The position numbers and the translations under genes are program-made. Source: an uncultured Candidatus Saccharibacteria bacterium (GTDB lineage: Bacteria > Patescibacteriota > Minisyncoccia > Phycocordibacterales > Phycocordibacteraceae). From it: 60,643 nt of DNA. Position 1 is the first letter of the stretch. Each line of letters starts with the position of its first letter. Positions 2,793 to 49,060 of the stretch are shown here, one piece after another. The notes below the pieces were generated by a model that was given only the letters and a program-made list of their open reading frames with translations, did no database searches and had not been told where the DNA came from. The stretch is from NCBI GenBank assembly GCA_964357395.1, contig CAYHLC010000002.1, positions 107,033 through 167,675 on the forward strand, written 5' to 3'.

Positions 2793-2816
2793 AAAATCCC
2801 CTAATAGGGGATTTTT
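2793..2816. terminator. bidirectional intrinsic terminator hairpin
   Basis: AAAATCCCCT-AAT-AGGGGATTTT, a perfect 10-bp stem flanked by A and T runs. Confidence 0.7.
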
Positions 2817-4234: not shown

Positions 4235-4235
4235 G

Positions 4236-4532: not shown

Positions 4533-4536
4533 GCCT

Positions 4537-5682: not shown

Positions 5683-5724
5683 ATCTTGACGCTATCACAA
5701 TAGTCCCAAAAGTCAATTAGTGCG

Positions 5725-6057
5725 CTACCAACCGCGCCTAATTGCGTCTGCCTGCTCCTCCTCGTGCGACTTTGCCTGCGCCGAATGGATTTTTTGGTCA
5801 GTTACGTTTGCGTGTGTCGCGAGCGAAATCGCTAACCCCGTCACAAACGTCGCGCCTCCTAGTGCGATCCACAGCGCCCTCTCTGTATCGGCAGACAGCT
5901 CGTCGCTATAGCTATCGATAACGATCCCGCCACCTATGACTGGCGCAGTGAGCGCCAGCAGCGCAACTCGAAGCCAGAATACCCAACGTGCACTATCCGC
6001 TGCCATGCCGTGCCTGCGCTCGGCTGCTTGCCCATGACCATCAGAGTATTCGCTCAT
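5725..6057 (-). CDS. small 2-TM membrane protein (hypothetical)
   Basis: 110 aa with two hydrophobic helices. The -10 TATGCT (6064..6069) lies 6 nt from the ATG. Confidence 0.55.
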   Translation of the reverse strand: MSEYSDGHGQAAERRHGMAADSARWVFWLRVALLALTAPVIGGGIVIDSYSDELSADTERALWIALGGATFVTGLAISLATHANVTDQKIHSAQAKSHEEEQADAIRRGW

Positions 6058-6098
6058 ACATTAAGCATACTGGACAATCTTAAGTTTGGTTACATAGC

Positions 6099-6123
6099 AA
6101 AAACCCCGCTTGCGCGGGGCTTT
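6099..6123 (-). terminator. intrinsic terminator after 6144..6461
   Basis: Minus-strand RNA GCCCCGC-GCAA-GCGGGG followed by UUUUU. Confidence 0.75.
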
Positions 6124-6143
6124 GCGACCGGTACTCCGGTTAG

Positions 6144-6461
6144 CTACATAAGCTTGGCAGCCCTAATTGCGTTACCGCCAATTCGGAACAGCACTCCACC
6201 AAGTGCGGCCTTTGCCCACTGATTAGTAGAGAGTGGATCATTGAAGTGCACCTCTGATAGGTCTACGTCCCATGTCTCAGGGGCTGCTAGCTTGTACTCA
6301 TCACTGCCAGCAGTCATATCATTAAGTGCATCTGCTGCCTCTACTCCGTTAACAACATACTGTCCGATGTTGAATAAGGCGATAAAAGCTGCGGTCCAGA
6401 GCGCCTGGGCACCGAGGAACTTCAGTGCTACATTTCCATTTTCTTTTCCTGCTACACCCAT
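6144..6461 (-). CDS. small membrane protein (hypothetical)
   Basis: 105 aa with N- and C-terminal hydrophobic segments and its own promoter and terminator. Confidence 0.6.
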   Translation of the reverse strand: MGVAGKENGNVALKFLGAQALWTAAFIALFNIGQYVVNGVEAADALNDMTAGSDEYKLAAPETWDVDLSEVHFNDPLSTNQWAKAALGGVLFRIGGNAIRAAKLM

Positions 6462-6490
6462 ATATTTTAATTAGTATTTAATAAAGTACC

Positions 6491-6520
6491 GGTATACCCT
6501 TTGTACCCACTCAGTGTCAA
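6491..6520 (-). promoter_or_regulatory. sigma70-type promoter of 6144..6461
   Basis: Minus strand TTGACA-18-TATACC. Shares the blocks AGTGTCAAAC and GTACCGGTATAC (plus-strand reading) with the promoter at 6996..7024. Confidence 0.6.
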
Positions 6521-6539
6521 ACGAGTTACTGCTACACAC

Positions 6540-6563
6540 AAAACCCCACCGAAGTGGGGTTTT
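6540..6563 (-). terminator. intrinsic terminator after 6580..6957
   Basis: CCCCAC-UUCG-GUGGGG hairpin followed by UUUU on the minus strand. Confidence 0.75.
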
Positions 6564-6579
6564 GTCAAACATCGAGGTC

Positions 6580-6957
6580 TTAGTGGTGACCACCACCTCC
6601 CCCACCGCCTCCTCCCGCTAGGACCTTTCGTGCGCCAAAGGTTAGGGCACCAACAAGGGTCGCCATACCGAGGCTAGTGATATCAAAACCTATAGTGTCG
6701 AAGTCTAGATACGGGTTGCTTAGGCTGTTCCAGAACTCAGATCCATTGAACCCAAAGCCAGTGCTCCACTCTCTTACTGAGAGGTTGTCGAACTGCGAGT
6801 ATACAGCATAGCCGATATTCATCAATATTGCGCCCATAACCGCGTTGATAAGGAGGATGCCAGCTGGTGCTAATTGCTCTGGCACTAGCTTCATTGCACG
6901 CTGCTCTGCTGGCGCAAGAACAAACGATTCTAATAGCTTTGCCGGATTAAAGTCCAT
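6580..6957 (-). CDS. small 2-TM membrane protein with poly-Gly-His C-terminus
   Basis: 125 aa with two hydrophobic helices. Ends AGGGGGGGGGHH. Confidence 0.6.
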   Translation of the reverse strand: MDFNPAKLLESFVLAPAEQRAMKLVPEQLAPAGILLINAVMGAILMNIGYAVYSQFDNLSVREWSTGFGFNGSEFWNSLSNPYLDFDTIGFDITSLGMATLVGALTFGARKVLAGGGGGGGGGHH

Positions 6958-6995
6958 AAGTTCTTTCTTTGACTTATCTTGCTTATAACCGTACC

Positions 6996-7024
6996 GGTAT
7001 ACTCCTCGATACTGTGAGTGTCAA
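6996..7024 (-). promoter_or_regulatory. sigma70-type promoter of 6580..6957
   Basis: Minus strand TTGACA-17-TATACC, with the same extended blocks as 6491..6520. Confidence 0.6.
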
Positions 7025-7078
7025 ACTTATTATGCACCCACACAAGAGGCTACGCTTTCGCAGGATTTTTTATTCGGA

Positions 7079-7435
7079 CTAGTCGTACCAGCCGCGCGTG
7101 TCCGTCTTCCTGCGGGGATAGGCCATTCCCATACCTACGCCGGCTCCAAGGAAGACAAGCACGTCTCGCCAGAAGCGACCTTCAGCGGCACCCTTCGCTG
7201 CAAGAAGGTCCTGTATCGTGCCGTTTGGTGTTGCCTTATCTGCAAATGCGATATTGTAGTCCTTAGTTGCTAATTGCAGATCCGCATGTGCGTCTACAAT
7301 TTCCGGCACCATAAAGACGTACAGTAGGCCGCCGAGCATAGCAAGGGTGAGAGTCTTTCCGAACCACTCCGAACCACTGTCCCGAGGACTAAAAACTTTT
7401 GCTTCTGCCATATACGAAAAATTAGCTTGTAACAC
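7079..7435 (-). CDS. small 2-TM membrane protein (hypothetical)
   Basis: 118 aa ORF. An ATG at 7411 (MAEAKVF) is the more likely start. Two hydrophobic helices. Confidence 0.55.
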   Translation of the reverse strand: MLQANFSYMAEAKVFSPRDSGSEWFGKTLTLAMLGGLLYVFMVPEIVDAHADLQLATKDYNIAFADKATPNGTIQDLLAAKGAAEGRFWRDVLVFLGAGVGMGMAYPRRKTDTRGWYD

Positions 7436-7469
7436 TAGGTATACTTGACTAGTTCAGATTTGGTTACAC

Positions 7470-7496
7470 AAAAACCCCGCTTTCGGCGGGGCTTTT
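7470..7496 (-). terminator. intrinsic terminator after 7509..7832
   Basis: GCCCCGC-CGAAA-GCGGGG followed by UUUUU on the minus strand. Confidence 0.75.
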
Positions 7497-7508
7497 GTTA
7501 ATCAGAGA

Positions 7509-7832
7509 TTAGTACCGACTTACGTACTCCTTATCGTAGGTGGCGTACGGCCTCATCTTAAAAGCAGCCCAGAGCAGACCGCCCGCGCCGAACGCATACA
7601 GAACCTTTCTCAGGTCGTGTCCAGCCTGCTCCGTTCTCAGATTTTCATACTGAACAAGGTCGTTTGCTTCCCGCGCCCTAGCAATATCATCAATCAGGCC
7701 GATTGCCTCGTTGTGCTCGTGCGCCGCTGCCATTCCAGCTTCACACATAGCCAAAGCAAGCGCCGCCATACCGATAACCTTTGCAAAGGCTGTTCCGATG
7801 CTCTCCTCCTGCCACACATGTTTGTAACCCAT
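7509..7832 (-). CDS. small 2-TM membrane protein (hypothetical)
   Basis: 107 aa with two hydrophobic helices. Promoter TTGACA-17-TAAAAA at 7862..7890. Confidence 0.6.
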   Translation of the reverse strand: MGYKHVWQEESIGTAFAKVIGMAALALAMCEAGMAAAHEHNEAIGLIDDIARAREANDLVQYENLRTEQAGHDLRKVLYAFGAGGLLWAAFKMRPYATYDKEYVSRY

Positions 7833-7861
7833 AAGTAATCTTTAATATATAAACGTAACTG

Positions 7862-7890
7862 TTTTTAACATCTATATATACTCTTGTCAA
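7862..7890 (-). promoter_or_regulatory. sigma70-type promoter of 7509..7832
   Basis: Minus strand TTGACA (7885..7890), 17-nt spacer, TAAAAA. Confidence 0.55.
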
Positions 7891-7910
7891 TAATCTCTGG
7901 TTACGAGCTG

Positions 7911-7936
7911 AAAAGCCCCTCCGGAGAGGGGCTTTT
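7911..7936 (-). terminator. intrinsic terminator after 7946..8416
   Basis: AGCCCCTC-CGGA-GAGGGGCT hairpin flanked by A and T runs. Confidence 0.75.
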
Positions 7937-7945
7937 ATGAATGAT

Positions 7946-8416
7946 CTATTTGGCGAGGGCGAGCTTGCCCCAACAGGCACGGCTGGCGTTCCAGGGCTTG
8001 GTGCCCTGCGTCTCATAGAGGTGCATAGCATAGGCAAGGTTGCCCTCAAAGGACATGAGGTCCATACCGAGCTCGGTTGCATCCTCGAGGTGGTAGCGAG
8101 TGTTGATCTGCATAACGCCGACGTCGGCACGGACCTTCTCTCCACGGAGCACCTCGCCGTTAGAGCCAAAGTGGCGGAAGTGCGACTCGCAGCCAGCGAT
8201 CTCTACCATGACCGGTGCGTCTTCGAAGTACTCAGAGAGGAGTGTACGCATCTCGGCAGGGGTCTCCGGTGGGGCGACCTTCTGCGCAAGGACCATTGGA
8301 TCTGCAAATGTGCCATGAACCGCAAAAGCGGTTCCGGCCATGAATGCGATGATTGGGAGCATGTAGATTTGTTTGGGCCTGCCTGCGCAGGCAGGTACGA
8401 AAAAAGCCGCCCACAT
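7946..8416 (-). CDS. membrane-anchored lytic transglycosylase / lysozyme-like (SLT-type) protein
   Basis: N-terminal hydrophobic anchor. IAGCESHFRHF (catalytic Glu-Ser) and VGVMQINTRYH strings resemble the SLT domain. Confidence 0.7.
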   Translation of the reverse strand: MWAAFFVPACAGRPKQIYMLPIIAFMAGTAFAVHGTFADPMVLAQKVAPPETPAEMRTLLSEYFEDAPVMVEIAGCESHFRHFGSNGEVLRGEKVRADVGVMQINTRYHLEDATELGMDLMSFEGNLAYAMHLYETQGTKPWNASRACWGKLALAK

Positions 8417-8509
8417 GGCGACTTGGAATTTATACTAGCATTTGACAGACCCCTGTGTCAAGCTCTCTGAATCAGAAAATCCTACACCATGGCCCTACTG
8501 AGCCATATA

Positions 8510-9223
8510 TTAGCATTTTACAGACTTCAGAATATGCTCATACGCCTCGTCCGCCGAGTCGACCACTTGGAACAGTTGCAGGTCCTCCTCGTTGATGGTC
8601 TGGTGCTTGAGGAGGGTGCCCTTGATGTACGCAACGAGCGGCGCCCAGTACTCCTTGCCGTACATGACGATCGGAATCCGCTTGATCTTGTTGGTCTGGA
8701 CCAAGGTAAGGATCTCGAACAGCTCGTCGAGCGTCCCGTACCCACCCGGGAAGAAGACATACACCTCGGACTCGAATGCGAGCATCACTCGCCGAGTAAA
8801 GAAGTAGTTAAACGTCATCGAGTCTGTTGTGTACTTGTTGCCTCCCTGCTCGTGCTGCAGCTTGATGTTGAGTCCGATCGACTTGCCCCCGGCATTGAAG
8901 GCCCCCTTGTTCCCTGCCTCCATAATGCCGGACGCGCCACCCGTAATGATGGCAAAGCCCGACTGAGACAGCTTCCTGGACAGCTCCTCCGCTGCGGCAT
9001 AGACCGATGGGTCGAGGGTATTCCGTGCAGAGCCAAAGAAGGTGGCTGCGAGCCGATACTTACGCAATAAGTCGAATCCGTCCACCAGCTCGGCCATAAT
9101 TTTGAACACGCGCCAAGACTCCATATCCTTGGTATGGTCCACCTTGACCGGGTCGCAGACCTTGAGCTCCCCCTCCATGCGGTGGATGATCGGCGGGACT
9201 ATGCTTCTGTTTGGCTCACTCAC
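8510..9223 (-). CDS. LOG family (TIGR00730) nucleotide phosphoribohydrolase
   Basis: GGASGIMEAGNKGA and PGGYGTLDELFE signature strings. Confidence 0.88.
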   Translation of the reverse strand: MSEPNRSIVPPIIHRMEGELKVCDPVKVDHTKDMESWRVFKIMAELVDGFDLLRKYRLAATFFGSARNTLDPSVYAAAEELSRKLSQSGFAIITGGASGIMEAGNKGAFNAGGKSIGLNIKLQHEQGGNKYTTDSMTFNYFFTRRVMLAFESEVYVFFPGGYGTLDELFEILTLVQTNKIKRIPIVMYGKEYWAPLVAYIKGTLLKHQTINEEDLQLFQVVDSADEAYEHILKSVKC

Positions 9224-9270
9224 CTTCCTATTCTACCGCATCCCGAGGTGAAACCTTGAGATGTTAGGCC

Positions 9271-9873
9271 CTAAGGTTTCACCTCAAACGGGATTGGATA
9301 GATCTCGAACTCGGGCAGCAGCTTTTTGCTATACAAGAGGCGGCTTGCTACCTCGGCGTGGCAGAGGGCGCCGGTAAGTGCGTTATGCGGCTTCGGCTCC
9401 GCAGGAACACCGACGTACGAAAGTATGTAGTCGAGGTTGATAGCCGAGTGGTGGTGGCGGATATCAAACGGAGGGATCTTGCCCTGCAGGGCTATATGCA
9501 TATACGCCATGGTGTGCGTGTCGAGTGTCCGGTGTGGGAACGGGTAGTCGATATGATAGCGCGCGCATGCTGCCTCGATAAAGCCGCGGTCGAACGACGG
9601 GTTCTGCCCCACAAAGGTCCAGTCCCTGCAGTCGGTGGCCCACGCGATGAACGAGCGTACCAGCGCCTCCTCGCTCTGCCATCCGGGGTTCTGTGCCTGT
9701 GCCTCGGTTAGGCCGTTGATGTCGAGGGCCTCCTTCTCAAAGTGGGCGCCCGGGAATGCCCGGCACTCGCCATAAAACTGGTTCGTCCTGTCATCAAAGT
9801 CGAGCGCCCCAATCGCTAGGATGGAGTGCACTTGGGGGTTGGTACCGGTCGTCTCGACATCCAGGACGATCAT
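9271..9873 (-). CDS. DEDD-family 3'-5' exonuclease (DnaQ-like)
   Basis: MIVLDVETTGTNP ExoI motif at the proposed start, and a later H-x4-D type region (NALTGALCHAEV). The ORF-track start at 10002 adds a non-protein-like 43-aa extension. Confidence 0.8.
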   Translation of the reverse strand: MIVLDVETTGTNPQVHSILAIGALDFDDRTNQFYGECRAFPGAHFEKEALDINGLTEAQAQNPGWQSEEALVRSFIAWATDCRDWTFVGQNPSFDRGFIEAACARYHIDYPFPHRTLDTHTMAYMHIALQGKIPPFDIRHHHSAINLDYILSYVGVPAEPKPHNALTGALCHAEVASRLLYSKKLLPEFEIYPIPFEVKP

Positions 9874-10007
9874 ATAGTCTCGATCTTGAAGTCCGAAGGA
9901 CCTGAATAAAAGACTGAGAGTCGCCCCATCTGGAAGGCGGCCAGGGCTACCAAAATGAGAATGGACACTGTGAGCAGCAGTTGCCCGTTTCTGATGAGCC
10001 ATGACAT
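9870..10007 (-). CDS. small single-TM protein, translationally coupled to the exonuclease
   Basis: MSWLIRNGQLLLTVSILILVALAAF. Its stop overlaps the exonuclease ATG in an ATGA. TAAAAT lies 7 nt upstream of its ATG. Confidence 0.45.
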   Translation of the reverse strand: MSWLIRNGQLLLTVSILILVALAAFQMGRLSVFYSGPSDFKIETI

Positions 10008-10060
10008 AAATCCTATTTTAGCACTGGCTTTTCGAGCTGGATGCAAAGGAGCGACCCGAC

Positions 10061-10088
10061 TTGACAAACACTAGGTTAGGCGTACTAT
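10061..10088 (+). promoter_or_regulatory. sigma70-type promoter, leaderless configuration
   Basis: TTGACA-16-TACTAT, then 7 nt to the ATG at 10096. Confidence 0.65.
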
Positions 10089-10095
10089 CCGCCCC

Positions 10096-10383
10096 ATGGA
10101 AGGAGGTCCGACGATACGAGATATGATCCGGTGGACTGCTATAGCATTTGCAGGATCCATGGCCCTGTCGTTCATGATGGCCTCAGCAATAACTGGTGGC
10201 TGGTTTATTGGACAGAAAATGGATGCCCTTTTTGAGTACGCCACTGGAACAGAGATTCCAGACGAGACCAGTCTCTTTGGATTTATTATGGCTGCACTTG
10301 CGATCTATGCAACTACGTTCCGGCAGTCTATACAAGACCCAGTCAAGGTGCCCCAAGCCGTAGCAGAGGCAAAAAAACTATAA
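10096..10383 (+). CDS. small 2-TM membrane protein (hypothetical)
   Basis: 95 aa with two hydrophobic helices and a consensus promoter directly upstream. Confidence 0.6.
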   Translation: MEGGPTIRDMIRWTAIAFAGSMALSFMMASAITGGWFIGQKMDALFEYATGTEIPDETSLFGFIMAALAIYATTFRQSIQDPVKVPQAVAEAKKL

Positions 10384-10387
10384 CTAT

Positions 10388-10663
10388 ATGGACAGAGATC
10401 GAATATGGTATCGCCCGGGGATGGGAGAAGTCGCAATGGCAATATTCCAAATGGCCTCTCTGGCCATTGGCGGTAGGATCCTTGGCGTTACGATCGAGAG
10501 CGGAGTCGTACCTCTTGAGTTCGGTAGTGTGGCAGACAACCTTGCCAAGGTAGTTGCTGCCATACTGGGCGCCGGTGCCGCGCTCACCATTGGTAACTTC
10601 TTTCGGCCATTCAATATTGCTAACTCGTACCGGACATTAGTCATCCATAACAGCGATGCCTAA
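10388..10663 (+). CDS. small 2-TM membrane protein (hypothetical)
   Basis: 91 aa with two hydrophobic helices, 4 nt after the previous gene. Confidence 0.55.
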   Translation: MDRDRIWYRPGMGEVAMAIFQMASLAIGGRILGVTIESGVVPLEFGSVADNLAKVVAAILGAGAALTIGNFFRPFNIANSYRTLVIHNSDA

Positions 10664-10832
10664 CTACGAACAGGTGGCGCTCTATGGAGGCGGTGCACTT
10701 TTAGCACTTGCCGTAGTCTTCCTATTGGTCAAGAGATACCGTGCCTCTGTCAAAGCAGAGCGAGAGGAATGGGAGAGGCTGGGCAAGGTGTCTGACGAAA
10801 GGCGCCAACGAGTCAGTGACTTCCTTAGCTAG
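10656..10832 (+). CDS. small single-TM protein (hypothetical, below ORF-track cutoff)
   Basis: Hand-translated 58 aa: MPNYEQVALYGGGALLALAVVFLLVKRY followed by a charged tail. Its ATG overlaps the end of the previous gene by 8 nt. Confidence 0.4.
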   Translation: MPNYEQVALYGGGALLALAVVFLLVKRYRASVKAEREEWERLGKVSDERRQRVSDFLS

Positions 10833-10890
10833 AGTCCCCACTCCCCCTTGAACTAAGGAGGGCAATACGGTATTATAGCCCCACAGAGAT

Positions 10891-11169
10891 ATGGCAACCA
10901 AAAAAGCCGGCGGATCAGCCAAAAACATATCCTACAACAACCCCCAGTACCTGGGAGTTAAGTTGTATGCAGGAGAGAAGGCCAATACAGGCAACGTCAT
11001 CATCCGCCAGCGTGGCACCAAGTTTGTCGCAGGCAAGGGCACTGCGGTTGGTAAGGACGACACCATTTTTGCAATGAAGGCCGGAGTAGTCTCGTACCGC
11101 TCGGTACGCCGCACCAAGTACGATGGCTCCACCGTCCGCCGCCAGGCCGTCGACGTCTTGTCTAAATAG
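10891..11169 (+). CDS. rpmA: 50S ribosomal protein L27
   Basis: KKAGGSAKN, GVKLYAGE and IIRQRGTKF strings. Promoter TTGAAC-17-TATTAT upstream. Confidence 0.95.
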   Translation: MATKKAGGSAKNISYNNPQYLGVKLYAGEKANTGNVIIRQRGTKFVAGKGTAVGKDDTIFAMKAGVVSYRSVRRTKYDGSTVRRQAVDVLSK

Positions 11170-11223
11170 CGCAACCCATAGGCAGTTTGACAAGTACCAT
11201 AAATAGGTACATAGTATGCAGGT

Positions 11224-11505
11224 ATGAAATCTGAACGACTGTTCTTCGAATCTGGCCAATGGGCATACCGGGGCACACTCGTTGGAGCGGCTTACCTTCT
11301 GATTTCTGGGCTCATTGTCGGGGTTTGGGAAGAGAAAGGCTTGGATTGGTTCACTATAGACATTCCTGCTGGTGCTATTGCAGGTAGTGCTTTAGGCGCA
11401 TTGGCTGGCTTTCTGAGCAAGACCTTTCTCAATGGAATGATGCTGGGGTTGGGAGGAGATGTTGGGGGTCCTGATGATCGCGACAACGATTTAGTAAACA
11501 CATAA
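11224..11505 (+). CDS. small 2-TM membrane protein (hypothetical)
   Basis: 93 aa with two hydrophobic helices. TTGACA promoter at 11187. Confidence 0.55.
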   Translation: MKSERLFFESGQWAYRGTLVGAAYLLISGLIVGVWEEKGLDWFTIDIPAGAIAGSALGALAGFLSKTFLNGMMLGLGGDVGGPDDRDNDLVNT

Positions 11506-11512
11506 ATTACAT

Positions 11513-11824
11513 ATGAGTGCAACTGAAGGGCAGGAATCATACGATGATAATGAGACCAAGGAGACTTTCCGAGTCATCATTTCATTCGCTGCATTTGCAG
11601 TAGCCTGTGGGGTACTGTTGTTGGCTACTGGAATGATGCATGATGATGCAGCGGTGACGGGCATTGATACAAGAGAGATGACCTTTGGCGCTTTGCTACT
11701 AATTCCGGCGGGACTCGCTGTGTTGTTTTTTGGAGCATTGAGAGGTAGACCTTGGGCCATTAACACTTTGCGGAAGTATGAGGAACTGCAAGAGTATGAC
11801 AATCGGGATAGGAGCGAAGAATAA
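11513..11824 (+). CDS. small 2-TM membrane protein, paralog of 11839..12159
   Basis: Two helices. C-terminus QEYDNRDRSEE resembles EDYNRDRLDEE of the next gene. Confidence 0.6.
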   Translation: MSATEGQESYDDNETKETFRVIISFAAFAVACGVLLLATGMMHDDAAVTGIDTREMTFGALLLIPAGLAVLFFGALRGRPWAINTLRKYEELQEYDNRDRSEE

Positions 11825-11838
11825 ATGCGTAACTCAAT

Positions 11839-12159
11839 ATGCGAGATTCAATTGAACAGGGAAAAATTAGGCAACGGACGAGGGAGAGACTTATGTGGGA
11901 TGTCGCGTTTTTTGCAACAGCCGTAGGTATACTGGCTGAGGGAGCTGGCCTGGTGAATGTTGATCCATTACGTTTTGATAGTTTTTTGGGTGAAGTAGAG
12001 GGTACTAACACATATCTCGCACTAGGCGGCCTTTTCCTACTGTCAAGCGTATTGGCAGTTATTGCCACTTTTGGGTCTGCTTTCGGGGCAACCAGGCGGC
12101 TGGAAACGAAGCGGATTGAGGATTACAATCGCGATAGATTGGACGAAGAGTTTGGCTAA
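11839..12159 (+). CDS. small 2-TM membrane protein, paralog of 11513..11824
   Basis: Two helices and the shared acidic Y-N/D-R-D-R tail. Confidence 0.6.
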   Translation: MRDSIEQGKIRQRTRERLMWDVAFFATAVGILAEGAGLVNVDPLRFDSFLGEVEGTNTYLALGGLFLLSSVLAVIATFGSAFGATRRLETKRIEDYNRDRLDEEFG

Positions 12160-12171
12160 TCAATCTCCCCC

Positions 12172-12192
12172 ACCGCCCACCGAGGGCGGTTT
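12172..12192 (+). terminator. probable intrinsic terminator
   Basis: ACCGCCC-ACCGA-GGGCGGT followed by a short T run. Confidence 0.5.
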
Positions 12193-12216
12193 ACTGAACG
12201 GCCGCCACGGTTCTGT

Positions 12217-12245
12217 TTGACAATAAGCTTTTGCTGCTGTATAAT
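12217..12245 (+). promoter_or_regulatory. consensus sigma70 promoter
   Basis: TTGACA-17-TATAAT, a perfect consensus, about 40 nt upstream of the ATG at 12288. Confidence 0.75.
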
Positions 12246-12287
12246 AGCCGTAACTAGACATTACTAACTTAAGTACTGTAAGTAGAT

Positions 12288-12623
12288 ATGACACTAACCG
12301 CAACAGCAGAGCAGGCACAGCAGGAAGTCGGCCGCCCAGGATCGTACCTCGCGTGGGCACTTATGTTCGGCGTTGGTTCTGCACTCATCGCTCGCTACTT
12401 CCTACTTTCTGAAGCGCTTGAGTCCGGCTATACAGAAGGCTTTACTGATCCTAGTGGTCGCGTAAGCTACGAGGTCCTCGGACTCACCGTCGCATCCGAG
12501 CGACCAGAGATCATGCGCGAGCTAGTGGACGGCGCCCGCACGACTGGATTCCTAGGCCTCTTTGTAGCTGCGCTCGGAGCAGGTGGAGCGTGGCACCGCT
12601 TCAGCACCGGACCAAAGAACTAA
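12288..12623 (+). CDS. small 2-TM membrane protein (hypothetical)
   Basis: 111 aa with two hydrophobic helices, downstream of the perfect promoter. Confidence 0.6.
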   Translation: MTLTATAEQAQQEVGRPGSYLAWALMFGVGSALIARYFLLSEALESGYTEGFTDPSGRVSYEVLGLTVASERPEIMRELVDGARTTGFLGLFVAALGAGGAWHRFSTGPKN

Positions 12624-12633
12624 CACAACAATC

Positions 12634-12738
12634 CCCTGGTTTAAGGATAAGGAGTTTGGTGAATCACTCTTCTCTCTTGCAGCAGCTGCCTGGGCACTCC
12701 TCGTCTGGCACGTGATCAGCCACGCTCGCAAGGCCTAG
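12634..12738 (+). pseudogene. start-less relic homologous to the 3' end of gene 12880..13107
   Basis: Reads PWFKDKEFGESLFSLAAAAWALLVWHVISHARKA*, compared with VPWFADKEFDDTLFNLAGWLAWGLLAWHVISHARKG* in the intact gene. No start codon in frame. Confidence 0.75.
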
Positions 12739-12827
12739 CTGACAAGAACAGTTACGGTAGCGGTGCTACCAGCAAGAGTTAGACCTACTTCGTGTGGGCC
12801 TTTCTGCTTTATTGGGTGGTGGAGAAA
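12735..12827 (-). pseudogene. relic of the 3' end of rplI (L9)
   Basis: Reads HHPIKQKGPHEVGLTLAGSTATVTVLVS*, compared with DHPIKQKGTHQVPISLDGSTATVVVSV* at the true L9 C-terminus. Includes the identical 17-mer ctgctttattgggtggt. Confidence 0.8.
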
Positions 12828-12844
12828 TGTAACTAGCGCCCAGT

Positions 12845-12873
12845 TTGACAAGTAGTACTTATGAGAGTACAAA
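12845..12873 (+). promoter_or_regulatory. sigma70-type promoter, leaderless configuration
   Basis: TTGACA-17-TACAAA, then 6 nt to the ATG at 12880. Confidence 0.6.
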
Positions 12874-12879
12874 CACATT

Positions 12880-13107
12880 ATGACGGAACAGAAGTTTTGG
12901 GCACCAAACATGAAGCGGGCGGGGCTCGAGTTTGCCATCGGCTCCGTGCTTATAGCTGGAGTCAGATCGGCAGGCAACGGAGCGCTCGAGTCCCTCGTCC
13001 CATGGTTCGCAGACAAGGAGTTTGATGACACACTCTTCAACCTCGCTGGATGGCTGGCTTGGGGACTCCTAGCCTGGCACGTTATCAGTCACGCACGTAA
13101 GGGCTAA
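12880..13107 (+). CDS. small 2-TM membrane protein (hypothetical)
   Basis: 75 aa with two helices. The intact copy of relic 12634..12738. Confidence 0.6.
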   Translation: MTEQKFWAPNMKRAGLEFAIGSVLIAGVRSAGNGALESLVPWFADKEFDDTLFNLAGWLAWGLLAWHVISHARKG

Positions 13108-13116
13108 CAAATTGTT

Positions 13117-13446
13117 ATGAGGCCAGGACACAGAACTGCAGAAGGATACTGGCGGAATGAACCAGCAAGCCCAGTTACTGTCGCAGTCGGTTCTGCGGCT
13201 GTACTCATACCCTTGTATCCAATTGTAGCTTTCACGGCATTTTCCATTGCAAATGGGAGCGGACTTCCTGCCTATAGCGAGGGCGGTACGCTATTCACTC
13301 CAAACGACAGCGTGGAGGTTGCATCCCTAGCCGTACTAATAACTGCGATCTTGCCAGCACTTTTGTGGCTTTCTGTATACCCCGCTGCGCGGCGTTCATA
13401 CAATGAGAGCTACCGGACGCGGCAAGTGGATGACGAAGAAAACTAG
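13117..13446 (+). CDS. small 2-TM membrane protein (hypothetical)
   Basis: 109 aa with two helices. Its stop shares CTAG with the rplI stop. Confidence 0.55.
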   Translation: MRPGHRTAEGYWRNEPASPVTVAVGSAAVLIPLYPIVAFTAFSIANGSGLPAYSEGGTLFTPNDSVEVASLAVLITAILPALLWLSVYPAARRSYNESYRTRQVDDEEN

Positions 13447-13877
13447 ACACTAACAACTACAGTGGCGGTGGAGCCGTCGAGGCTGATGGGCACCTGATGG
13501 GTGCCTTTTTGCTTTATTGGGTGGTCGAGTAGAACGGCCGACTCGGGCACGGTGACGCTGAGCTCTGACTTAAGGGCGGTAACGATGTCGGACTCGTGCA
13601 GCGACTTGAACAGGGTTCCTGTCTCGCTCGACTTCGCTGTTATCGTAATAGTCTTGCCATCGATCTGCGCTAGTACTGCGCGCGCCTGCGCAGCGCCCTG
13701 GTCTGCCCTGCCCTTGGCCTCCGCAGCAGCCTTCTCATACTTCTTCAGGTTGTCTGCAGTACCCGGCACCGCCTTGCCCTGCGGAATCAGGACGTTCATT
13801 GCGTAGCCGTCCGCTACAGTAATCAGCTGCCCCCGCACCCCCACCTTCTTTACATCAATTGTGAGTATCACCTTCAT
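13443..13877 (-). CDS. rplI: 50S ribosomal protein L9
   Basis: MKVILTIDVKKVGVRGQLITVADGYAMNVLIPQGKAV N-terminal domain. Confidence 0.93.
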   Translation of the reverse strand: MKVILTIDVKKVGVRGQLITVADGYAMNVLIPQGKAVPGTADNLKKYEKAAAEAKGRADQGAAQARAVLAQIDGKTITITAKSSETGTLFKSLHESDIVTALKSELSVTVPESAVLLDHPIKQKGTHQVPISLDGSTATVVVSV

Positions 13878-13916
13878 ATAGTTGAGTCTACCCTACGCGT
13901 ATGCTAGCGTAAAGGC

Positions 13917-14213
13917 ATGAACAAACAACCATGGGAGGCGCGTAGTCCTTTGGAAAAGGCGCATAGCGCCACGCTTGCAGTTGCCATCGGGTCGGCCATT
14001 GTGTCGGCTCTTTTTGTATCTGTCGATCTTCTTGCTGATAACGTACTGGATGGCGGCACAATCGAGACCCGCGCCCTCGCTCTTGCCGGCCTCTCGGGCG
14101 TCATTGCACTAGCCCTCGGCTGGTGGATCAAGCGCTCTGCGCACCAGGAGCGCGTACAGCTACTTGGTAGCGAGAGCAACGCGCAAGAGTGGGAACGCGC
14201 CCACGGCCTCTAA
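13917..14213 (+). CDS. small 2-TM membrane protein (hypothetical)
   Basis: 98 aa with two hydrophobic helices. Confidence 0.55.
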   Translation: MNKQPWEARSPLEKAHSATLAVAIGSAIVSALFVSVDLLADNVLDGGTIETRALALAGLSGVIALALGWWIKRSAHQERVQLLGSESNAQEWERAHGL

Positions 14214-15467
14214 CTATTTGCCAGTATTCAGGAACTCGACAGCTCTATCGAGCTGCGGGTCCTTGTCCCCTTCCCTATCCTCAGCGGTGATCTTGACCTC
14301 TATGTCCGGGGTGAGGCCCTGGTGCGATATCGATGTGCCGTTCGGAGTGAGCCAGCGCGCAACCGTAATCTTGAGCTGCGTCGTCTCGGTAACATCAAAG
14401 AGTTGCTGCACCGAGCCCTTGCCGAACGATTGGGTGCCGATCAGTGTTGCGCGGCCGTGGTCCTTCATCGCGCCAGCCATAATCTCGGAAGCAGAGGCCG
14501 ACCCGCCGTCGATGAGTATTACTATCTTGATATCCTTGTTCTGCAGGGAGCCGAAGCCAGCAGACTTGTAGGTGGTGTCCTGTCTGTCGCCACCATAATC
14601 AGAGGTGACAATAAGTTCGCCTGCGGGCAAAAACCAGCTCACCATATCCGCTGCAGACTCGAGGAACCCGCCTGGGTTGCCGCGGAGGTCGATAATCAGC
14701 TTATCCTTGCCGGATGCGATGAAGGTTTGTATCGCATCCGCAAAGAGCTGCGGAGACATACCGTTGAAGCTGTACAGCTGTATGTAGTAGATCCCGTCGT
14801 CCCGCATCGTGGCGTCTAGTGTAGGAAGCACGATGGTGTCGCGTGTCACCTTGATCTCGAACTCCGCGCCATCGTCCTTGCCCTCGCGAGCGAGGGAGAG
14901 TGTCACCACAGTGCCGCCCTTGCCGCGGATGTGGCCAACTGCTTCGTCAACTGCCATGTTGAGGGTCGACTCACCGTCGATCTTGAGTATCAGGTCTCCA
15001 CTCTTGATGCCTGCGCGGAAAGCGGGTGTGTCCTTGATCGGTGCGATGACGGTCAGTATGCCGTTCCGCTTACCGATTTCCATACCGACGCCCTCGAAGC
15101 CGCCTGCGACCTCGGTCTCGAATATCTGCTTCTGCACTGGCGGAAGGAATACCGTGTAATCATCGCCATACGCTGCTGCTAATCCTTGGATGGCACCCCA
15201 GAGCTTATCCTCTGCTTCGATGACTGCGGTGGTCGTCGCTGGTGCGAAGTGCTCGTTAAGCAAGTTCCATGACGAAAAAAATGGTGCGAGGTCCACCTGC
15301 TCGGGCGCGCGCGCGTCGTAGATAGGCTGGCGGAAGCTGGCGGTCGCGCTGCCTGCATAAAAGCCGGCCCCTCCAATAACCACAACGGCAATAACGATCT
15401 GAGTTACAGATACCTGTAACTTTTTTTGTACCCATCCTTGCGGCGTCTTAAGCTCTAGTTGCTCCAT
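14214..15467 (-). CDS. ctp: C-terminal processing peptidase (S41, Ctp/Prc-like) with PDZ domain
   Basis: RGNPGGFLESA and LIDGGSASASEIMAGA motifs. Start set at MEQLELK (15467) because the longer ORF runs into corA. Confidence 0.9.
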   Translation of the reverse strand: MEQLELKTPQGWVQKKLQVSVTQIVIAVVVIGGAGFYAGSATASFRQPIYDARAPEQVDLAPFFSSWNLLNEHFAPATTTAVIEAEDKLWGAIQGLAAAYGDDYTVFLPPVQKQIFETEVAGGFEGVGMEIGKRNGILTVIAPIKDTPAFRAGIKSGDLILKIDGESTLNMAVDEAVGHIRGKGGTVVTLSLAREGKDDGAEFEIKVTRDTIVLPTLDATMRDDGIYYIQLYSFNGMSPQLFADAIQTFIASGKDKLIIDLRGNPGGFLESAADMVSWFLPAGELIVTSDYGGDRQDTTYKSAGFGSLQNKDIKIVILIDGGSASASEIMAGAMKDHGRATLIGTQSFGKGSVQQLFDVTETTQLKITVARWLTPNGTSISHQGLTPDIEVKITAEDREGDKDPQLDRAVEFLNTGK

Positions 15468-15486
15468 ACCAAAGTATAATAGCATT

Positions 15487-16401
15487 ATGATTACACGATA
15501 CGAGCACCAAGGCGTGCAGTGGCTTGATGTCGAGCGGCCAACGCCCGAGGAGGCAGATGCGCTTGCCGAGGAGTTTGGCTTGGGCCCCGTCGTGATACAA
15601 GAGATCACCACACCGACCATGAAGCCACGTGTCGACCTGTACCCAAACTTCATCTACCTCGTACTCCACTTCCCCGCTTATCGTGACACGCGCGGTGCGC
15701 AGGCAGACCACGAGGTAGACCTCGTCGTCGGCAAGAACTTCATACTCACCGTGCACTACGAGACAGTGCCTGCGATACATGACTTTGCTCGCTCGTTCGA
15801 GACGGCCATGCTGCTCAAGAAGCCGAAGAGCGGCTTTCATAGTGGACACGTGATATTTGAGCTCGCGCACCGCCTGTACCAATCGGTTGATCATGAGCTG
15901 GATGCCGTGGAAGAGTCGGTAGCCAAGATCGAGAGGGCGATCTTCTCCCGTCGCGAGCGCGAGATGGTGGCACCTATCTCCACCATGACTCGAGAGCTCC
16001 TGAACCATCGACGCCTTATTGGCAACCAGGAGGAGACGCTCAGGGAGTTCGAGAAGGCGGGCGCGTCGCTCTTTGGCGACACGTTCCGTAGCTATATGTC
16101 GACCATGACGGCGCTGCATTACCGAGTCTTCAATCGTGCGCAGATGCTGATGGATACCCTTGGCGAGCTGCGCAGTACCAACGACTCTTTGATGTCCACC
16201 AAGCAGAACGAGATCATGAAAAACCTGACCATCATGGCCTCGGTCATACTGCCGCTCTCCCTTGTTGCGTCGATGTTTGGTATGAATACGGAGCACAACC
16301 CCTTTGTCGGCAACCCGAACGACTTTTGGATTGTCGCAGGGATTATGGTCATTGTCGGTCTCCTGGTCATGATCTACTTCCAGTTCAAACGCTGGTTCTA
16401 A
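15487..16401 (+). CDS. corA: CorA-family magnesium/cobalt transporter
   Basis: MFGMNTEHNPF (GMN motif) followed by two C-terminal TM helices. Confidence 0.92.
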   Translation: MITRYEHQGVQWLDVERPTPEEADALAEEFGLGPVVIQEITTPTMKPRVDLYPNFIYLVLHFPAYRDTRGAQADHEVDLVVGKNFILTVHYETVPAIHDFARSFETAMLLKKPKSGFHSGHVIFELAHRLYQSVDHELDAVEESVAKIERAIFSRREREMVAPISTMTRELLNHRRLIGNQEETLREFEKAGASLFGDTFRSYMSTMTALHYRVFNRAQMLMDTLGELRSTNDSLMSTKQNEIMKNLTIMASVILPLSLVASMFGMNTEHNPFVGNPNDFWIVAGIMVIVGLLVMIYFQFKRWF

Positions 16402-16403
16402 GC

Positions 16404-16499
16404 TAGGGTGTAGCCACTAGGGTATAGGGTTTAGACAAGAGGCTAATTAAGGGGATAAGGCAGTTGAAAACCTCGCTATTGGCTAAACCCTAGTGGCTA
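16404..16499. repeat. TAGGGT-rich inverted repeat, related to 40575..40598
   Basis: TAGCCACTAGGGTATAGGGTTTAG (16411..16434) and the inverted CTAAACCCTAGTGGCTA (16483..16499). A third TAGGGT at 16404. Confidence 0.7.
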
Positions 16500-16522
16500 G
16501 TGCCTACCTGTATACTTTGGTA

Positions 16523-17908
16523 ATGGCCGGCCCCAACATGCGCATACCCCCGCAATCTATCGATGCAGAGCGCGCACTCCTTGGTGCCGTAATGCTGAAG
16601 GCGGACGCGATACACGAGATCACCGACCTCATAACGAGTGATTCGTTTTATGTAGAGAAGCATCGCAGCATCTACCGTGCGTTTGTGGCGCTCGCCGCTG
16701 CCGGCTCCCCCATCGACCTCCTCTCCGTTGCTAACTACCTTAAGGACCAGCAGGAGCTGGAGCGCGCGGGTGGCAATGGCTACCTGGCAGAGCTGGTGTC
16801 CGCCGTCCCCACCTCCTCTAACATCAAGCACTATGCGGAAATAGTGCAGAAGAAGTCGATGATGCGCGCCGTGATCGACGCGGCAACGGACATAAGCGAC
16901 ATGGGCTACGACGAGAGCCGTCAGATCGAGGAGATAGTCGACGGCGCCGAAAAGAGGCTCGGCGAGGCGACGAGCAACCCGACGATGCGTAAGTTTGTCG
17001 CTATTGGCGAGGAACTGAAGGAGGCCATGGAGCGGTTCGAGAACCTCAGTAAGGGCGACCACGAAATGCGCGGCGTCCCCACCGGGTTTGCGAACCTAGA
17101 CAACGTGCTTGCCGGCTTTCAGAAGTCGGACCTCATCATCCTCGCTGCTCGCCCCTCGATGGGTAAGACCAGTCTCGCCCTCGACATTGCACGCCAGACT
17201 GCTATTAAGTTTGGTACCCCCGTCGGGATCTTCTCACTCGAGATGAGTGCGCAGCAGTTGGTGGACCGTATGCTCGCAGCCGAAGCGCGAGTGGATGCGT
17301 GGAAGTTGCGCACCGGACGCATCTCGACTGACGAGGAGTTCGAGCAGATCCGCGACGGCATGGAACGCCTCAGCAAGGCCCCTATCTATATCGACGATCA
17401 GCCGGCCAACAATGCACTCATCATGCGTTCGGTGGCGCGCCGCCTCAAGCGGGAGAACGGCATCGGACTCCTCATCATCGACTACCTGCAACTGATGGCG
17501 CCGACATCGGCCCGTTCCTCCGACTCATTGGTACAGCAGGTGACGGAGATATCCCGCTCATTGAAGCAGCTCGCGCGCGAACTGGATGTGCCCGTCCTCG
17601 CCCTCTCACAACTCAGCCGCGCCGTCGAGCAACGCCGGGGCAGGCCGCGTCTCTCCGACCTCCGTGACTCGGGCTCTATCGAGCAGGATGCGGACGTGGT
17701 TATGTTCATCCACCGCGAGGACAAGATGAACTCGGAGACGGTCGAGAAGAACAACATGGCCGAGATCCTGATTGAGAAGCACCGCAACGGCCCCGTCGGC
17801 AAGGTGGACCTCTACTTCGATGAGAAGCGCGCCTCCTTCATCCCTATCGACAACTCCGACTTCGGTGCCTCCGTCACCACCCCCGCCTCGGCGCACGAAG
17901 ACTTTTAA
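16523..17908 (+). CDS. dnaB: replicative DNA helicase DnaB
   Basis: PPQSIDAERALLGAVM N-terminal domain, Walker A ARPSMGKTS, LIIDYLQLM, SQLSRAVE. Start placed at the ATG 6 nt after TATACT (16511..16516). The ORF-track GTG at 16493 is also possible. Confidence 0.93.
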   Translation: MAGPNMRIPPQSIDAERALLGAVMLKADAIHEITDLITSDSFYVEKHRSIYRAFVALAAAGSPIDLLSVANYLKDQQELERAGGNGYLAELVSAVPTSSNIKHYAEIVQKKSMMRAVIDAATDISDMGYDESRQIEEIVDGAEKRLGEATSNPTMRKFVAIGEELKEAMERFENLSKGDHEMRGVPTGFANLDNVLAGFQKSDLIILAARPSMGKTSLALDIARQTAIKFGTPVGIFSLEMSAQQLVDRMLAAEARVDAWKLRTGRISTDEEFEQIRDGMERLSKAPIYIDDQPANNALIMRSVARRLKRENGIGLLIIDYLQLMAPTSARSSDSLVQQVTEISRSLKQLARELDVPVLALSQLSRAVEQRRGRPRLSDLRDSGSIEQDADVVMFIHREDKMNSETVEKNNMAEILIEKHRNGPVGKVDLYFDEKRASFIPIDNSDFGASVTTPASAHEDF

Positions 17909-18193
17909 CTAGCTCTTGCGCCGCCCCTTGTCTTCTTCTGATTGTCTCCAATGACGCGCATAACCGGCGCTCTCCTGGTACCACATCGCTTGATCAATTA
18001 TGTACATTGAGAGTACAAAAGCCCCCACCCCACCCACTTCTCCAAACGCATTCCAGAGCCCGGTGCCTAGATTTCCTTCTAGTGCCTCCTCTGGTATTTC
18101 AAGTAGAGTCCACGCACCCACACCAGCAAGCGCCGCAACGACAAGGTGGGTGCTTGTCCGCTCGAACCAAAGAGGTTTAGGAGCTTCTGCCAT
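17909..18193 (-). CDS. small 2-TM membrane protein (hypothetical)
   Basis: 94 aa with two hydrophobic helices. Its stop abuts the dnaB stop. Confidence 0.55.
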   Translation of the reverse strand: MAEAPKPLWFERTSTHLVVAALAGVGAWTLLEIPEEALEGNLGTGLWNAFGEVGGVGAFVLSMYIIDQAMWYQESAGYARHWRQSEEDKGRRKS

Positions 18194-18222
18194 ACCACCA
18201 GTGTGCCATATGCGGTAAGCTT

Positions 18223-20199: not shown

Positions 20200-20906
20200 A
20201 GTCCCGAGGTTTCGCCTCGGGACTTGCTATACTTATGTGCAGTATATGGCTAGGAACCACCGATTTGCGCCTGGCGAGTGGTACCACTGCTACAATCGTG
20301 GTGTTGAAAAACGTACTACCTTTCTCAGTGCCACCGATTACCACCGCTTTATGTTGCTCATGTATACCTGCAATTCATCTGAGCCGTATGAGAACCTCAC
20401 ATACCGCAACGAGAGCTTGGCGGACGCGATTGAGCGACAAGGCCGGACAGGCACCCCCCTCGTTGCCATAGGAGTCTATTGCATGATGCCCAACCACTTT
20501 CATTTTTTGATGAAGGAGGTAGTCGAGGGAGGCATTGCCAAATTCATGCAGAAGGCGATAACTGGATACACAATGTACTTCAACAAGAAGTATGAGAGGT
20601 CTGGACCCCTATTTGTTGCTGGCGTCTTTAAATCTCGCCACGTTGATGCTGATGTCTATTTACAGCATGTGGCTTCTTACATACATCTCAACCCAACCGA
20701 CCTGAAACTCAAATGGCCTGAAGTGTTGACCTTCCCCTACAGTAGCCTTGCAGACTTCGACAAAACGACCCACCGAATTCAAAAGTCACTACTGGACGAT
20801 GAGATCTTTACTTTGATCAATCAAGATCTGATGCACAATTCTCTTAAGGAAGCGGCTGGGGTGTATGCAACCAAACTGGAAAGTCCCGAGTCGAAACCTC
20901 GGGACT
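20200..20906 (+). mobile_element. RAYT/IS200-like Y1 transposase gene bracketed by inverted 25-nt hairpins
   Basis: AGTCCCGAGG-TTTCG-CCTCGGGACT at 20200..20224. Its inverted copy (1 mismatch) lies at 20882..20906. Confidence 0.7.
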
Positions 20907-20911
20907 TTTGA
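20246..20911 (+). CDS. HUH-Y1 transposase, REP-associated tyrosine transposase (RAYT)-like
   Basis: MPNHFHFLM (HUH motif) and ASYIHLNP (catalytic Tyr context). Homologous to 53032..53691. Confidence 0.8.
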   Translation: MARNHRFAPGEWYHCYNRGVEKRTTFLSATDYHRFMLLMYTCNSSEPYENLTYRNESLADAIERQGRTGTPLVAIGVYCMMPNHFHFLMKEVVEGGIAKFMQKAITGYTMYFNKKYERSGPLFVAGVFKSRHVDADVYLQHVASYIHLNPTDLKLKWPEVLTFPYSSLADFDKTTHRIQKSLLDDEIFTLINQDLMHNSLKEAAGVYATKLESPESKPRDF

Positions 20912-49052: not shown

Positions 49053-49060
49053 CCCCCCCT

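Follow-up and report, generated by a model that had tools for sequence, protein, structure and literature searches.

Orphan arrays and displacement at rhs-type loci were reportedly described by Jackson et al. in 2009, and the integration of e14 at icd is said to have been worked on by Hill et al. in 1989; in the classical icd studies, the differences between icd and icdC are reportedly mostly synonymous. At effector-immunity loci of type VI secretion systems (T6SS), C-terminal displacement and orphan arrays have been documented (Kirchberger et al. 2017, PMC5361080), and homology-facilitated illegitimate recombination (HFIR), anchored in the conserved part of the gene, is the mechanism proposed for modules that are added, not replaced, in T6SS and rhs orphan arrays (PMC5361080). 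HFIR in natural transformation is treated by de Vries and Wackernagel 2002 and by Prudhomme et al. 2002, as far as PMC5361080 cites them. In Escherichia coli, e14 or phage 21 can integrate at the 3′ end of icd, which gives rise to the pseudogene icdC (PMC13626634). Here we describe a locus that can be compared with these systems. It lies in 60,643 nucleotides (nt) of DNA from an uncultured Candidatus Saccharibacteria bacterium (contig CAYHLC010000002.1; this whole stretch is the window, to which all coordinates refer), in the spacer between rpmA and rplI, which encode ribosomal proteins L27 and L9. Within this spacer, positions 12632..12827 form an apparent 196-base fossil of two converging gene ends, one from rplI and the other from a gene of the type that encodes a small hydrophobic protein of 75 amino acids (aa).

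The locus resembles rhs, cdiA and T6SS displacement in that a conserved gene body stays in frame although its 3′ end has been newly supplied, in that a start-less old 3′ end (at rplI and likewise at a second gene, fmt) has been pushed downstream, together with a small neighbouring gene, and in that repeated events lead to small-gene arrays. Unlike in those systems, the anchor is a housekeeping gene without a toxin domain (L9, with Ribosomal_L9_N/C, and fmt, with Formyl_trans_N), and the small genes are orphans that nothing marks as immunity genes. At rplI these genes also converge on the anchor and do not follow it, and the retained tail carries a regulatory signal, not a toxin tip.

Displaced gene ends and two colinear units

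The live rplI gene (13443..13877, minus strand) is intact, with matches to the Pfam domains Ribosomal_L9_N (9.7e-19) and L9_C (1.3e-14). A copy of its last 31 codons lies at 12735..12827, on the same strand, and encodes (F)LHHPIKQKGPHEVGLTLAGSTATVTVLVS, where the live L9 end at 13443..13535 reads LLDHPIKQKGTHQVPISLDGSTATVVVSV. The two share 19 of 28 amino acids; in a tblastx comparison of the window with itself these 28 aa (68% identity, 45.5 bits) are the second-best off-diagonal match. At the nucleotide level 54 of 84 positions are identical, and 25 of 27 in a core (12798..12824 against 13503..13529), of which a 22-nt stretch has only two sites in the 60 kb window. At the near-invariant KQKGT.xVP positions of L9, the relic has changed T to P and P to G. 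A preliminary description of this DNA had taken 12735..12827 for a degenerate copy of the L9 C-terminus, and the comparison bears this out. A candidate third tail relic in 12160..12287 was rejected, as the repeats there are not colinear (z = 2.8) and the tail core is found at the two sites only.

The second half of the fossil lies on the plus strand. The 75-aa gene occupies 12880..13107, and the last 35 codons of a gene of this type recur without a start at 12632..12738. Aligning 12632..12737 with 12998..13106 gives 109 columns, 82 of them identical (75%), with one 3-nt gap that stays in frame. The alignment score is 80, compared with 15.9 +/- 2.1 for shuffled sequences (z = 30), and the pair is recovered by blastn of the window against itself with E = 3.5e-12. 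The relic protein, PWFKDKEFGESLFSLAAA-AWALLVWHVISHARKA, aligns with the live PWFADKEFDDTLFNLAGWLAWGLLAWHVISHARKG. It has no ATG, its sole in-frame start is a GTG at 12583 within the preceding gene, and gene callers left it uncalled in independent assemblies. The claim that a start-less copy of the 3′ end of 12880..13107 is present at 12634..12738 is thus confirmed by the alignment score, except that the homology begins at 12632. The earlier wording of "two small 2-TM genes" (with two transmembrane helices, TM) beside the relics holds by TM prediction for the 109-aa gene (13117..13446, plus strand; no family match above threshold), but the 75-aa protein has two hydrophobic stretches that stay below a strict hydropathy threshold for TM helices.

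The two relics meet in a CTAG at 12735..12738, in which the stop codons of opposite strands share TA, just as the live 109-aa gene and rplI overlap in a CTAG at 13443..13446. Both sites can be read directly in the sequence, and the relics abut through the same stop-stop junction as the live pair, as had been noted. Similarity above background, on which the preliminary description had made its reading depend, is found for both segment pairs (z = 30 and E = 3.5e-12 for the 75-type half, 45.5 bits in tblastx for the tail half). Its order of rplI, two small genes and displaced rplI tail is also correct in sequence. It had further placed relics on either side of a two-gene insert; there is a scar, but both relics stand together on one side of the two genes, opposite the live rplI tail.

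Chance similarity, or an assembly chimera of co-occurring strains, would be another source of such a repeat, and the sequence does come from a metagenome assembly whose contig names give a low coverage of 3-5x. However, the alignment statistics of the 75-type half and the rank of the tail half among the tblastx matches speak against chance. Moreover, the locus was recovered at 99.5-100% identity in four independent assemblies from three replicate samples, all from a Patescibacteria (Candidate Phyla Radiation, CPR) population in Hainich groundwater well H41. Since the same sequence is present in four assemblies, the structure is not an assembly artefact, and this explanation, to which we give next to no credence, is effectively refuted already. 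Single-nucleotide differences between the assemblies are uninformative, as is a contig break within fmt in one of them, where coverage is low.

The repetition extends beyond the gene ends. The 14-mer CAGTTTGACAAGTA, a promoter box with the -35 hexamer TTGACA, has exactly two occurrences in the window, both on the plus strand. One is at 11183..11196, just after rpmA (10891..11169, plus strand), the left flank of the spacer, whose translation matches the L27 of relatives and PF01016. The other, at 12841..12854, heads the 75-aa gene. The distance from box to start codon is 41 nt to a 93-aa gene in the first case and 39 nt to the 75-aa gene in the second, and a promoter-like site is predicted at 11187..11215. 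The first unit consists of the box at 11183, genes of 93, 103, 106 and 111 aa, the displaced 75-type 3′ end, and the displaced tail with its terminator. The second consists of the box at 12841, the 75-aa gene, the 109-aa gene, and a tail with its terminator inside the live rplI, after which the rplI body follows. We regard these as two colinear units because the 14-nt box, the 75-type 3′ end and the tail recur in the same order. Judged from the sequence, then, what is repeated is a whole promoter-to-terminator unit and not merely two gene ends.

The terminator in this unit is predicted on the strand opposite to the rplI tail. At 13488..13520 (plus strand), a hairpin GGGCACC-TGA-TGGGTGCC is followed by TTTTTGCTTTATT; the hairpin (13488..13506) has a folding energy of -12.6 kcal/mol, with the T-run directly 3′ of it. 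We compared this region with rplI tails of relatives (L001, L002, L013, L014, L018, L019, L020 and L021), all relatives compared here being genomes with at most 70% L9 identity (range 50-70%). A hairpin and T-run lie within the KQKGT..VP codons in 8 of the 9 relatives' tails checked. In the alignment, a small sample of 11 sequences, 91% of stem cells are paired, versus 33-44% when the structure is slid along the sequences. The stem varies in a compensatory manner (GGCACG/CGTGCC, GGCACT/AGTGCC, GGTACC/GGTACC), with double changes in two of six pairs. The exceptional tail, L019a, belongs to an rplI copy on which no gene converges any more, and there the hairpin is lost. The antisense hairpin is thus predicted to be the intrinsic terminator of whatever converges on rplI.

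Since the antisense strand of the rplI tail encodes a predicted terminator, the relic can be understood as the 3′ end of a transcription unit, terminator included. The 27-nt core is conserved because it has a dual coding role, specifying both HPIKQKG and the T-run of the terminator, and it is therefore no evidence for an attachment (att) site. The relic retains a weakened version of the terminator at 12784..12812 (plus strand), a hairpin CCUAC-UUCGU-GUGGG plus CCTTTCTGCTTTATT with a folding energy of -6.3 to -9.1 kcal/mol, weaker because of the T to P and P to G changes. It sits where a transcript from the promoter of the 111-aa gene would need to end, and the displaced tail may help to terminate that predicted transcript.

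The 111-aa orphan gene (12288..12623, plus strand) is called in independent assemblies, and its stop lies 9 nt ahead of the relic. It is preceded by a sigma-70 promoter at 12217..12245 (plus strand) with TTGACA, a 17-nt spacer and TATAAT, a 12/12 match to the consensus. Upstream of this promoter, three orphan genes of 93, 103 and 106 aa (11224..12159, plus strand) are each predicted to encode two TM helices, and have no family matches. This block has a GC content of 47.5% and a GC skew of +0.23 to +0.32, while core genes and surroundings are at 55-59% GC. It is compositionally foreign, and probably a separate, more recent acquisition. It is followed at about 12172..12195 by a terminator-like CCGCCC-ACCGA-GGGCGG with a T-rich TTTACTG. 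No Pfam, PHROG or NCBIfam family was found for any of the small genes between rpmA and rplI.

We also considered relationships among these small genes. The 93-aa gene was rejected as the lost 5′ half of the 75-type relic, as there is no similarity and 325 of 1000 shuffled sequences score equally high. The 111-aa and 75-aa proteins share FxxGSxLIA..ALES near the first hydrophobic helix and AWHxxS after the last. With 7 of 11 identities and E = 0.028 this was set aside as a demonstration of paralogy and stays a weak lead, on which the 111-aa protein may be a distant paralogue of the 75-aa protein with a central insertion. Elsewhere in the window, a module of about 65 nt occurs twice between unrelated small genes of the minus strand (6058..6123 and 7432..7495). 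It holds a terminator hairpin, GCCCCGC..GCGGGGC, with a T-run, and then a promoter-like stretch. Shared junction modules of this kind could supply homology for the shuffling of small-gene units.

The rpmA-rplI spacer in relatives and the scar at fmt

The relatives share the gene order gltX, M23 peptidase, LOG, RNase T, rpmA converging on rplI, ctp, CorA, DnaB and RecR. In two of them (L001 and L014) rpmA and rplI overlap tail to tail, and in a third (L013) a gap of 100 nt separates them; the relatives show direct convergence of the two genes to be the ancestral state. Other relatives have one (L018), two (L021 and L024), three (L019), four (L002) or five (L020) genes in the spacer, so that the range is 0 to 5, and almost every genome that we examined has a gene set of its own. 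The spacer of the window holds six small genes in addition to the relics. Because its contents vary by genome, the spacer is a long-standing hot spot for the gain of small orphans, mostly with two TM helices. The window has also gained genes nearby: three small genes lie upstream of rpmA (10096..10832), where relatives have none, and a 98-aa gene (13917..14213) lies between rplI and ctp, where in relatives the two genes overlap with no gene between them. As a result the block from the M23 peptidase to RecR (2428..18222) measures about 15.8 kb here versus about 7.6 kb in L014, and almost all of the excess consists of small orphan open reading frames (ORFs), mostly with two TM helices.

One spacer gene in a relative bears directly on the fossil. 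Among 1.8 billion representatives, the 75-aa protein has a sole true homologue, P0212, with 70 aa, 59% identity and E = 7e-17; a second match, P0213 (803 aa), is spurious, being a low-complexity repeat protein. P0212 is encoded between rpmA and rplI in L024, where an unrelated 106-aa gene separates it from rplI, and it differs from the 75-aa gene with proportions of non-synonymous (pN) and synonymous (pS) differences of 0.31 and 0.86, respectively. The presence of P0212 in the same spacer of another lineage indicates that the 75-type gene has long resided in the spacer and is not a recent installation. The preliminary description had proposed that the relic pair preserves an older junction, in which the 75-type gene converged on rplI. 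This is not established, as the 75-type gene is a long-standing resident and the relic may just as well be the foreign copy.

Scans of genomes and metagenome contigs and look-ups of exact proteins recovered only the same clonal population or sequences with at most 70% L9 identity, and no presence/absence polymorphism of the units was seen in the contig scans, which contain one clonal population only. Self-comparison of nine related loci by tblastx detected no tail or 75-type relics, with the exception of a tandem rplI in L019 (Logan SRR24236061). In this genome two intact rplI genes (4562..4996 and 5001..5435) are 54% identical, and the upstream copy is without the antisense hairpin. Extra rplI sequence can therefore join this locus.

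A second scar of the same topology had been reported at fmt, and this is upheld by blastn and tblastx. The gene (46761..47594, plus strand; Pfam Formyl_trans_N) ends with PTKVVPEGKKEQDWQG at 47544..47594, and its last 16 codons recur without a start, as PPRVIPEGKKEQGWLG, on the same strand at 49055..49105. The two tails match over 45 nt at 82% identity (E = 4e-5 in self-blastn), with pS 0.47 and pN 0.27. Between fmt and the relic tail there are four small genes, and three more lie 3′ of the relic; in a relative, L022, one small gene is present between fmt and hpf. The relic tail has the family consensus, RVIPEGKKEQ, while the live KVVPEGKKEQ is derived. Furthermore, the stop codon of the relic overlaps the -35 box TTGACA of a promoter for the downstream genes (49090..49125), as is likewise the case in L022 (4610..4650), and the live tail reads TTGATA, having lost this box. 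By the same logic as at rplI, the displaced fmt tail would thus carry a promoter in place of a terminator. Comparison with relatives, which had been proposed as a check for the rplI neighbourhood, identifies both sites as hot spots of lineage-specific small genes. The useful twist is that core-gene tails also serve the small-gene units next to them as terminator or promoter.

Substitution patterns and the origin of the repeated unit

The pattern of substitutions in the fossil carries information on its origin. By Nei-Gojobori counts, the live and relic rplI tails differ with pS 0.65-0.69 and pN 0.21-0.24, and the live and relic 75-type sequences with pS 0.62 and pN 0.16. For comparison, the rplI tail of the window and the orthologous tails of six relatives have pS 0.58-0.70 and pN 0.30-0.34, so that the relic tail stands at about the same distance from the resident L9 tail as do tails from other lineages. 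The tail pair has 13-15 synonymous differences at about 20-22 sites and 12-15 non-synonymous differences at about 58-62 sites (Fisher p = 5e-4). For this pair neutral divergence is rejected (p = 3e-4), with an observed ratio of non-synonymous to synonymous rates (dN/dS) of about 0.16. In likelihood-ratio tests, one-sided decay in situ, modelled as dN/dS of at least 0.5, is rejected both for the tail (p = 0.03) and for the 75-type pair (p = 0.01), each of about 30 codons. By codon position the differences are most frequent at the third (9/6/15 in the tail pair and 4/8/16 in the 75-type pair), indels in both halves stay in frame, and GSTATV is kept through synonymous changes that include a switch between the serine codons TCC and AGC. 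From these patterns, the relic resembles a functional tail that was silenced recently and is predicted to come from a sister lineage.

Because both halves of the relic differ from their live counterparts mostly at synonymous sites, as orthologues do, we favour the hypothesis that a homologous unit was added from a divergent relative by an event of the HFIR type, over a tandem duplication in situ. We hold this tentatively, at close to but below an even chance. Under this hypothesis, DNA of a divergent relative carrying the homologous region from rpmA through the spacer to rplI would have been taken up. A single crossover within a conserved flank (rplI or, as another possible homology anchor, rpmA) and one illegitimate join at 12827/12828 would then have added the unit beside the resident one without replacing it. 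Later rearrangements would have deleted the 5′ part of the 75-type copy at 12631/12632 and added the genes of 93, 103, 106 and 111 aa, and the displaced tail would have begun to decay, although it could still serve to terminate the 111-aa transcript. Uptake of DNA is plausible, since com genes are conserved across the CPR and Saccharibacteria have been shown to undergo natural transformation (PMC10633639). In common with HFIR, this scenario has one conserved anchor flank, one non-homologous junction and DNA that is added, in a group with conserved com genes. Unlike in HFIR experiments, as far as the cited sources describe them, the event is reconstructed from a single end product, and the divergence of the partners (dS > 1) is far above that of the experimental systems.

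Several observations weigh against this hypothesis. The selection tests use about 30 codons from each half and the synonymous sites are saturated, so that p = 0.03 is modest, and the relic and live sequences were ascertained through protein similarity. Partners that differ by dS > 1 should recombine very rarely. The truncation of the 75-type copy at 12631/12632 needs a second, separate event, although duplication would need a further event for it as well. No donor-like lineage was found in our searches, and the sole homologue of the 75-aa protein among the 1.8 billion representatives is not the source of the relic. Finally, the fmt scar points in the other direction: its live and relic tails share the codons AAG AAG GAG where relatives have AAA AAA GAG, and the flanking arrays hold paralogues (47653 versus 49631), both of which fit duplication in situ. 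The evidence on origin is weaker for fmt than for rplI, and in-situ duplication would fit the fmt scar at least as well.

For rplI, too, tandem duplication in situ is a serious rival, though one that we place on the unlikely side. The duplicated segment would reach from upstream of the promoter that follows rpmA to about codon 114 of rplI. The detached copy would then decay without a start, new small genes would replace the 5′ part of its 75-type gene, and the 109-aa gene would enter the other copy. Like other segmental duplications, the locus has colinear direct repeats of a promoter, a gene 3′ end and the tail of a flanking gene, with the truncated copy a pseudogene, and a duplication is the simplest single event that repeats promoter, 75-type gene and tail in the same order. 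Tandem duplication is also the commonest structural change in bacteria, and instances of copying are at hand in the tandem rplI of L019, in the paralogous small genes on both sides of the fmt relic and the codon states shared by the fmt tails, and in the intergenic copying evident from the 65-nt module. However, a tail that was non-coding from birth predicts dN/dS of at least 0.5, and in this small data set the observed value is about 0.16 (p = 0.03). The substitutions in the truncated copy resemble those of a functional orthologue and not those of a decaying fragment: the pN of the tail pair is below that of functional orthologues at the same saturated pS, and the indels are in frame. If instead a second full rplI had long been kept downstream of the converging genes, it would need its own promoter; in relatives rplI is probably co-transcribed with ctp, since it abuts or overlaps the end of that gene.

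A further alternative is that the relic is itself functional, either as a real 51-aa gene (12583..12738) or as a silent cassette for gene conversion of the 75-aa gene. The open frame with its GTG start encodes one TM helix, the C-terminal WHVISHARK is kept through four synonymous changes, and the differences of the 75-type pair are concentrated at third codon positions. Nevertheless, we consider this highly improbable. The frame is uncalled in every assembly, its start lies inside the 111-aa gene, for an overlap of 41 nt, and has a GGAG at a poor spacing, and a functional 75-type relic leaves the selection signature of the rplI tail on the opposite strand unexplained. As for gene conversion, pS of about 0.62 means that none has occurred recently, and the window contains a single such copy.

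Another possibility is that an element of the e14 type integrated site-specifically in the 3′ end of rplI and displaced the native tail, which would now mark attR, the integrase and most of the element having since been lost or the cassette having been mobilised in trans. The topology is identical to that of icd, e14 and the icdC pseudogene (PMC13626634), in that a live 3′ end and a displaced 3′ pseudogene bracket inserted DNA. A replacement tail brought by the element predicts exactly such a signature of purifying selection, the similarity starts sharply at the well-conserved 27-nt core, and there are two such scars within 60 kb. Unlike e14, however, the insert is just about 0.6 kb and has no phage genes and no integrase: no ORF between rpmA and rplI exceeds 111 aa, and no recombinase domain was found there. 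Otherwise the window has two transposase-like genes, both of the IS200-like Y1 type and at distances of 7 and 40 kb. Transposases of the IS200/IS605 family are not known to make target duplications. The 27-nt core, identical at 25 of 27 positions in live and relic tails, is equally conserved in the orthologues of other genomes, and is hence probably not att-specific, coding and terminator constraints being enough to explain it. Furthermore, the cargo and the DNA that adjoins the displaced tail are homologous, as are the 75-aa gene and the 75-type relic, which insertion in a naive site would not yield. No copies of the L9 tail were found in IMG/VR by protein or DNA pattern. In our estimation an integrative element is very unlikely.

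Other known mechanisms were compared as well. Integron cassette arrays likewise grow by serial addition of single-gene units at one site, with older units pushed away; unlike these, the locus has no detectable IntI, attI or attC, its units carry their own promoters and terminators, and the tail of the flanking gene is duplicated, which is not so in integrons. A diversity-generating retroelement (DGR) with a template/variable repeat pair was rejected, because the mismatches involve all four bases in both copies and are not adenine-specific. Hairpins resembling repetitive extragenic palindromes (REP), CCCGAGG-N5-CCTCGGG, were rejected as junction markers, since they occur elsewhere in the window and are absent at the rplI locus.

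The rplI scar is accordingly a recombination scar of a known kind that belongs to neither the toxin-displacement nor the e14/icd family, although as an anchored addition it works in the manner of toxin displacement. The preliminary description had seen in the two scars a recurrent mechanism that installs small membrane-protein genes at the ends of core genes. The scars and the hot spots are real, but no integrase, att-specific core, phage copy or DGR goes with them, and ordinary recombination, either homology-anchored and illegitimate or by tandem duplication, is sufficient to explain them.

Small-gene gain in the wider window

Several further repeats were observed in the window. The REP-like hairpin is found at 20203..20221, 20885..20903, 29985..30003 and 50012..50030; the first two copies flank the IS200-like Y1 transposase gene at 20237..20911, and the last marks the distal end of the small-gene array at fmt, adjoining hpf. 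Three exact copies of the palindrome TGAGTGAGATCCGATCTCACTCA (53015..53038, 53523..53546 and 53706..53729) lie around or inside the second Y1_Tnp gene (53032..53691), which resembles the arrangement of REP sequences with REP-associated tyrosine transposases (RAYT). Two pairs of paralogues are also apparent in the self-comparison: MreB-like genes on the minus strand (34658..35713 and 41577..42839; 46% identity over 327 aa), and genes similar to penicillin-binding proteins (26457..28187 and 32055..33926).

Patescibacteria genomes are tiny, and yet a conserved block of 7.6 kb has here been roughly doubled, to about 15.8 kb, by orphan genes for small membrane proteins. The two scars physically record the arrival of such genes in the form of whole promoter-to-terminator units beside conserved genes. 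In a broader and decidedly doubtful version of this idea, the small membrane-protein units would be serially added cassettes for which the core gene is the homology anchor, with DNA acquired from divergent relatives, and the tail travels along as terminator or promoter, with displacement arrays analogous to those of immunity genes as the result. If this were true, the small proteins would be under diversifying selection driven by interactions, for example in host attachment or immunity.

If the duplication hypothesis is correct, the scar is an ordinary pseudogene fragment. If, on the other hand, the unit was added from a divergent relative, as we tentatively favour, the locus would provide evidence at the sequence level for recombination among deeply diverged CPR lineages in groundwater. 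It would then also supply a search image, namely a start-less core-gene tail that follows the live one at a distance of a few hundred bases, which could be used to map gene flow and hot spots of gene gain in uncultivated bacteria.

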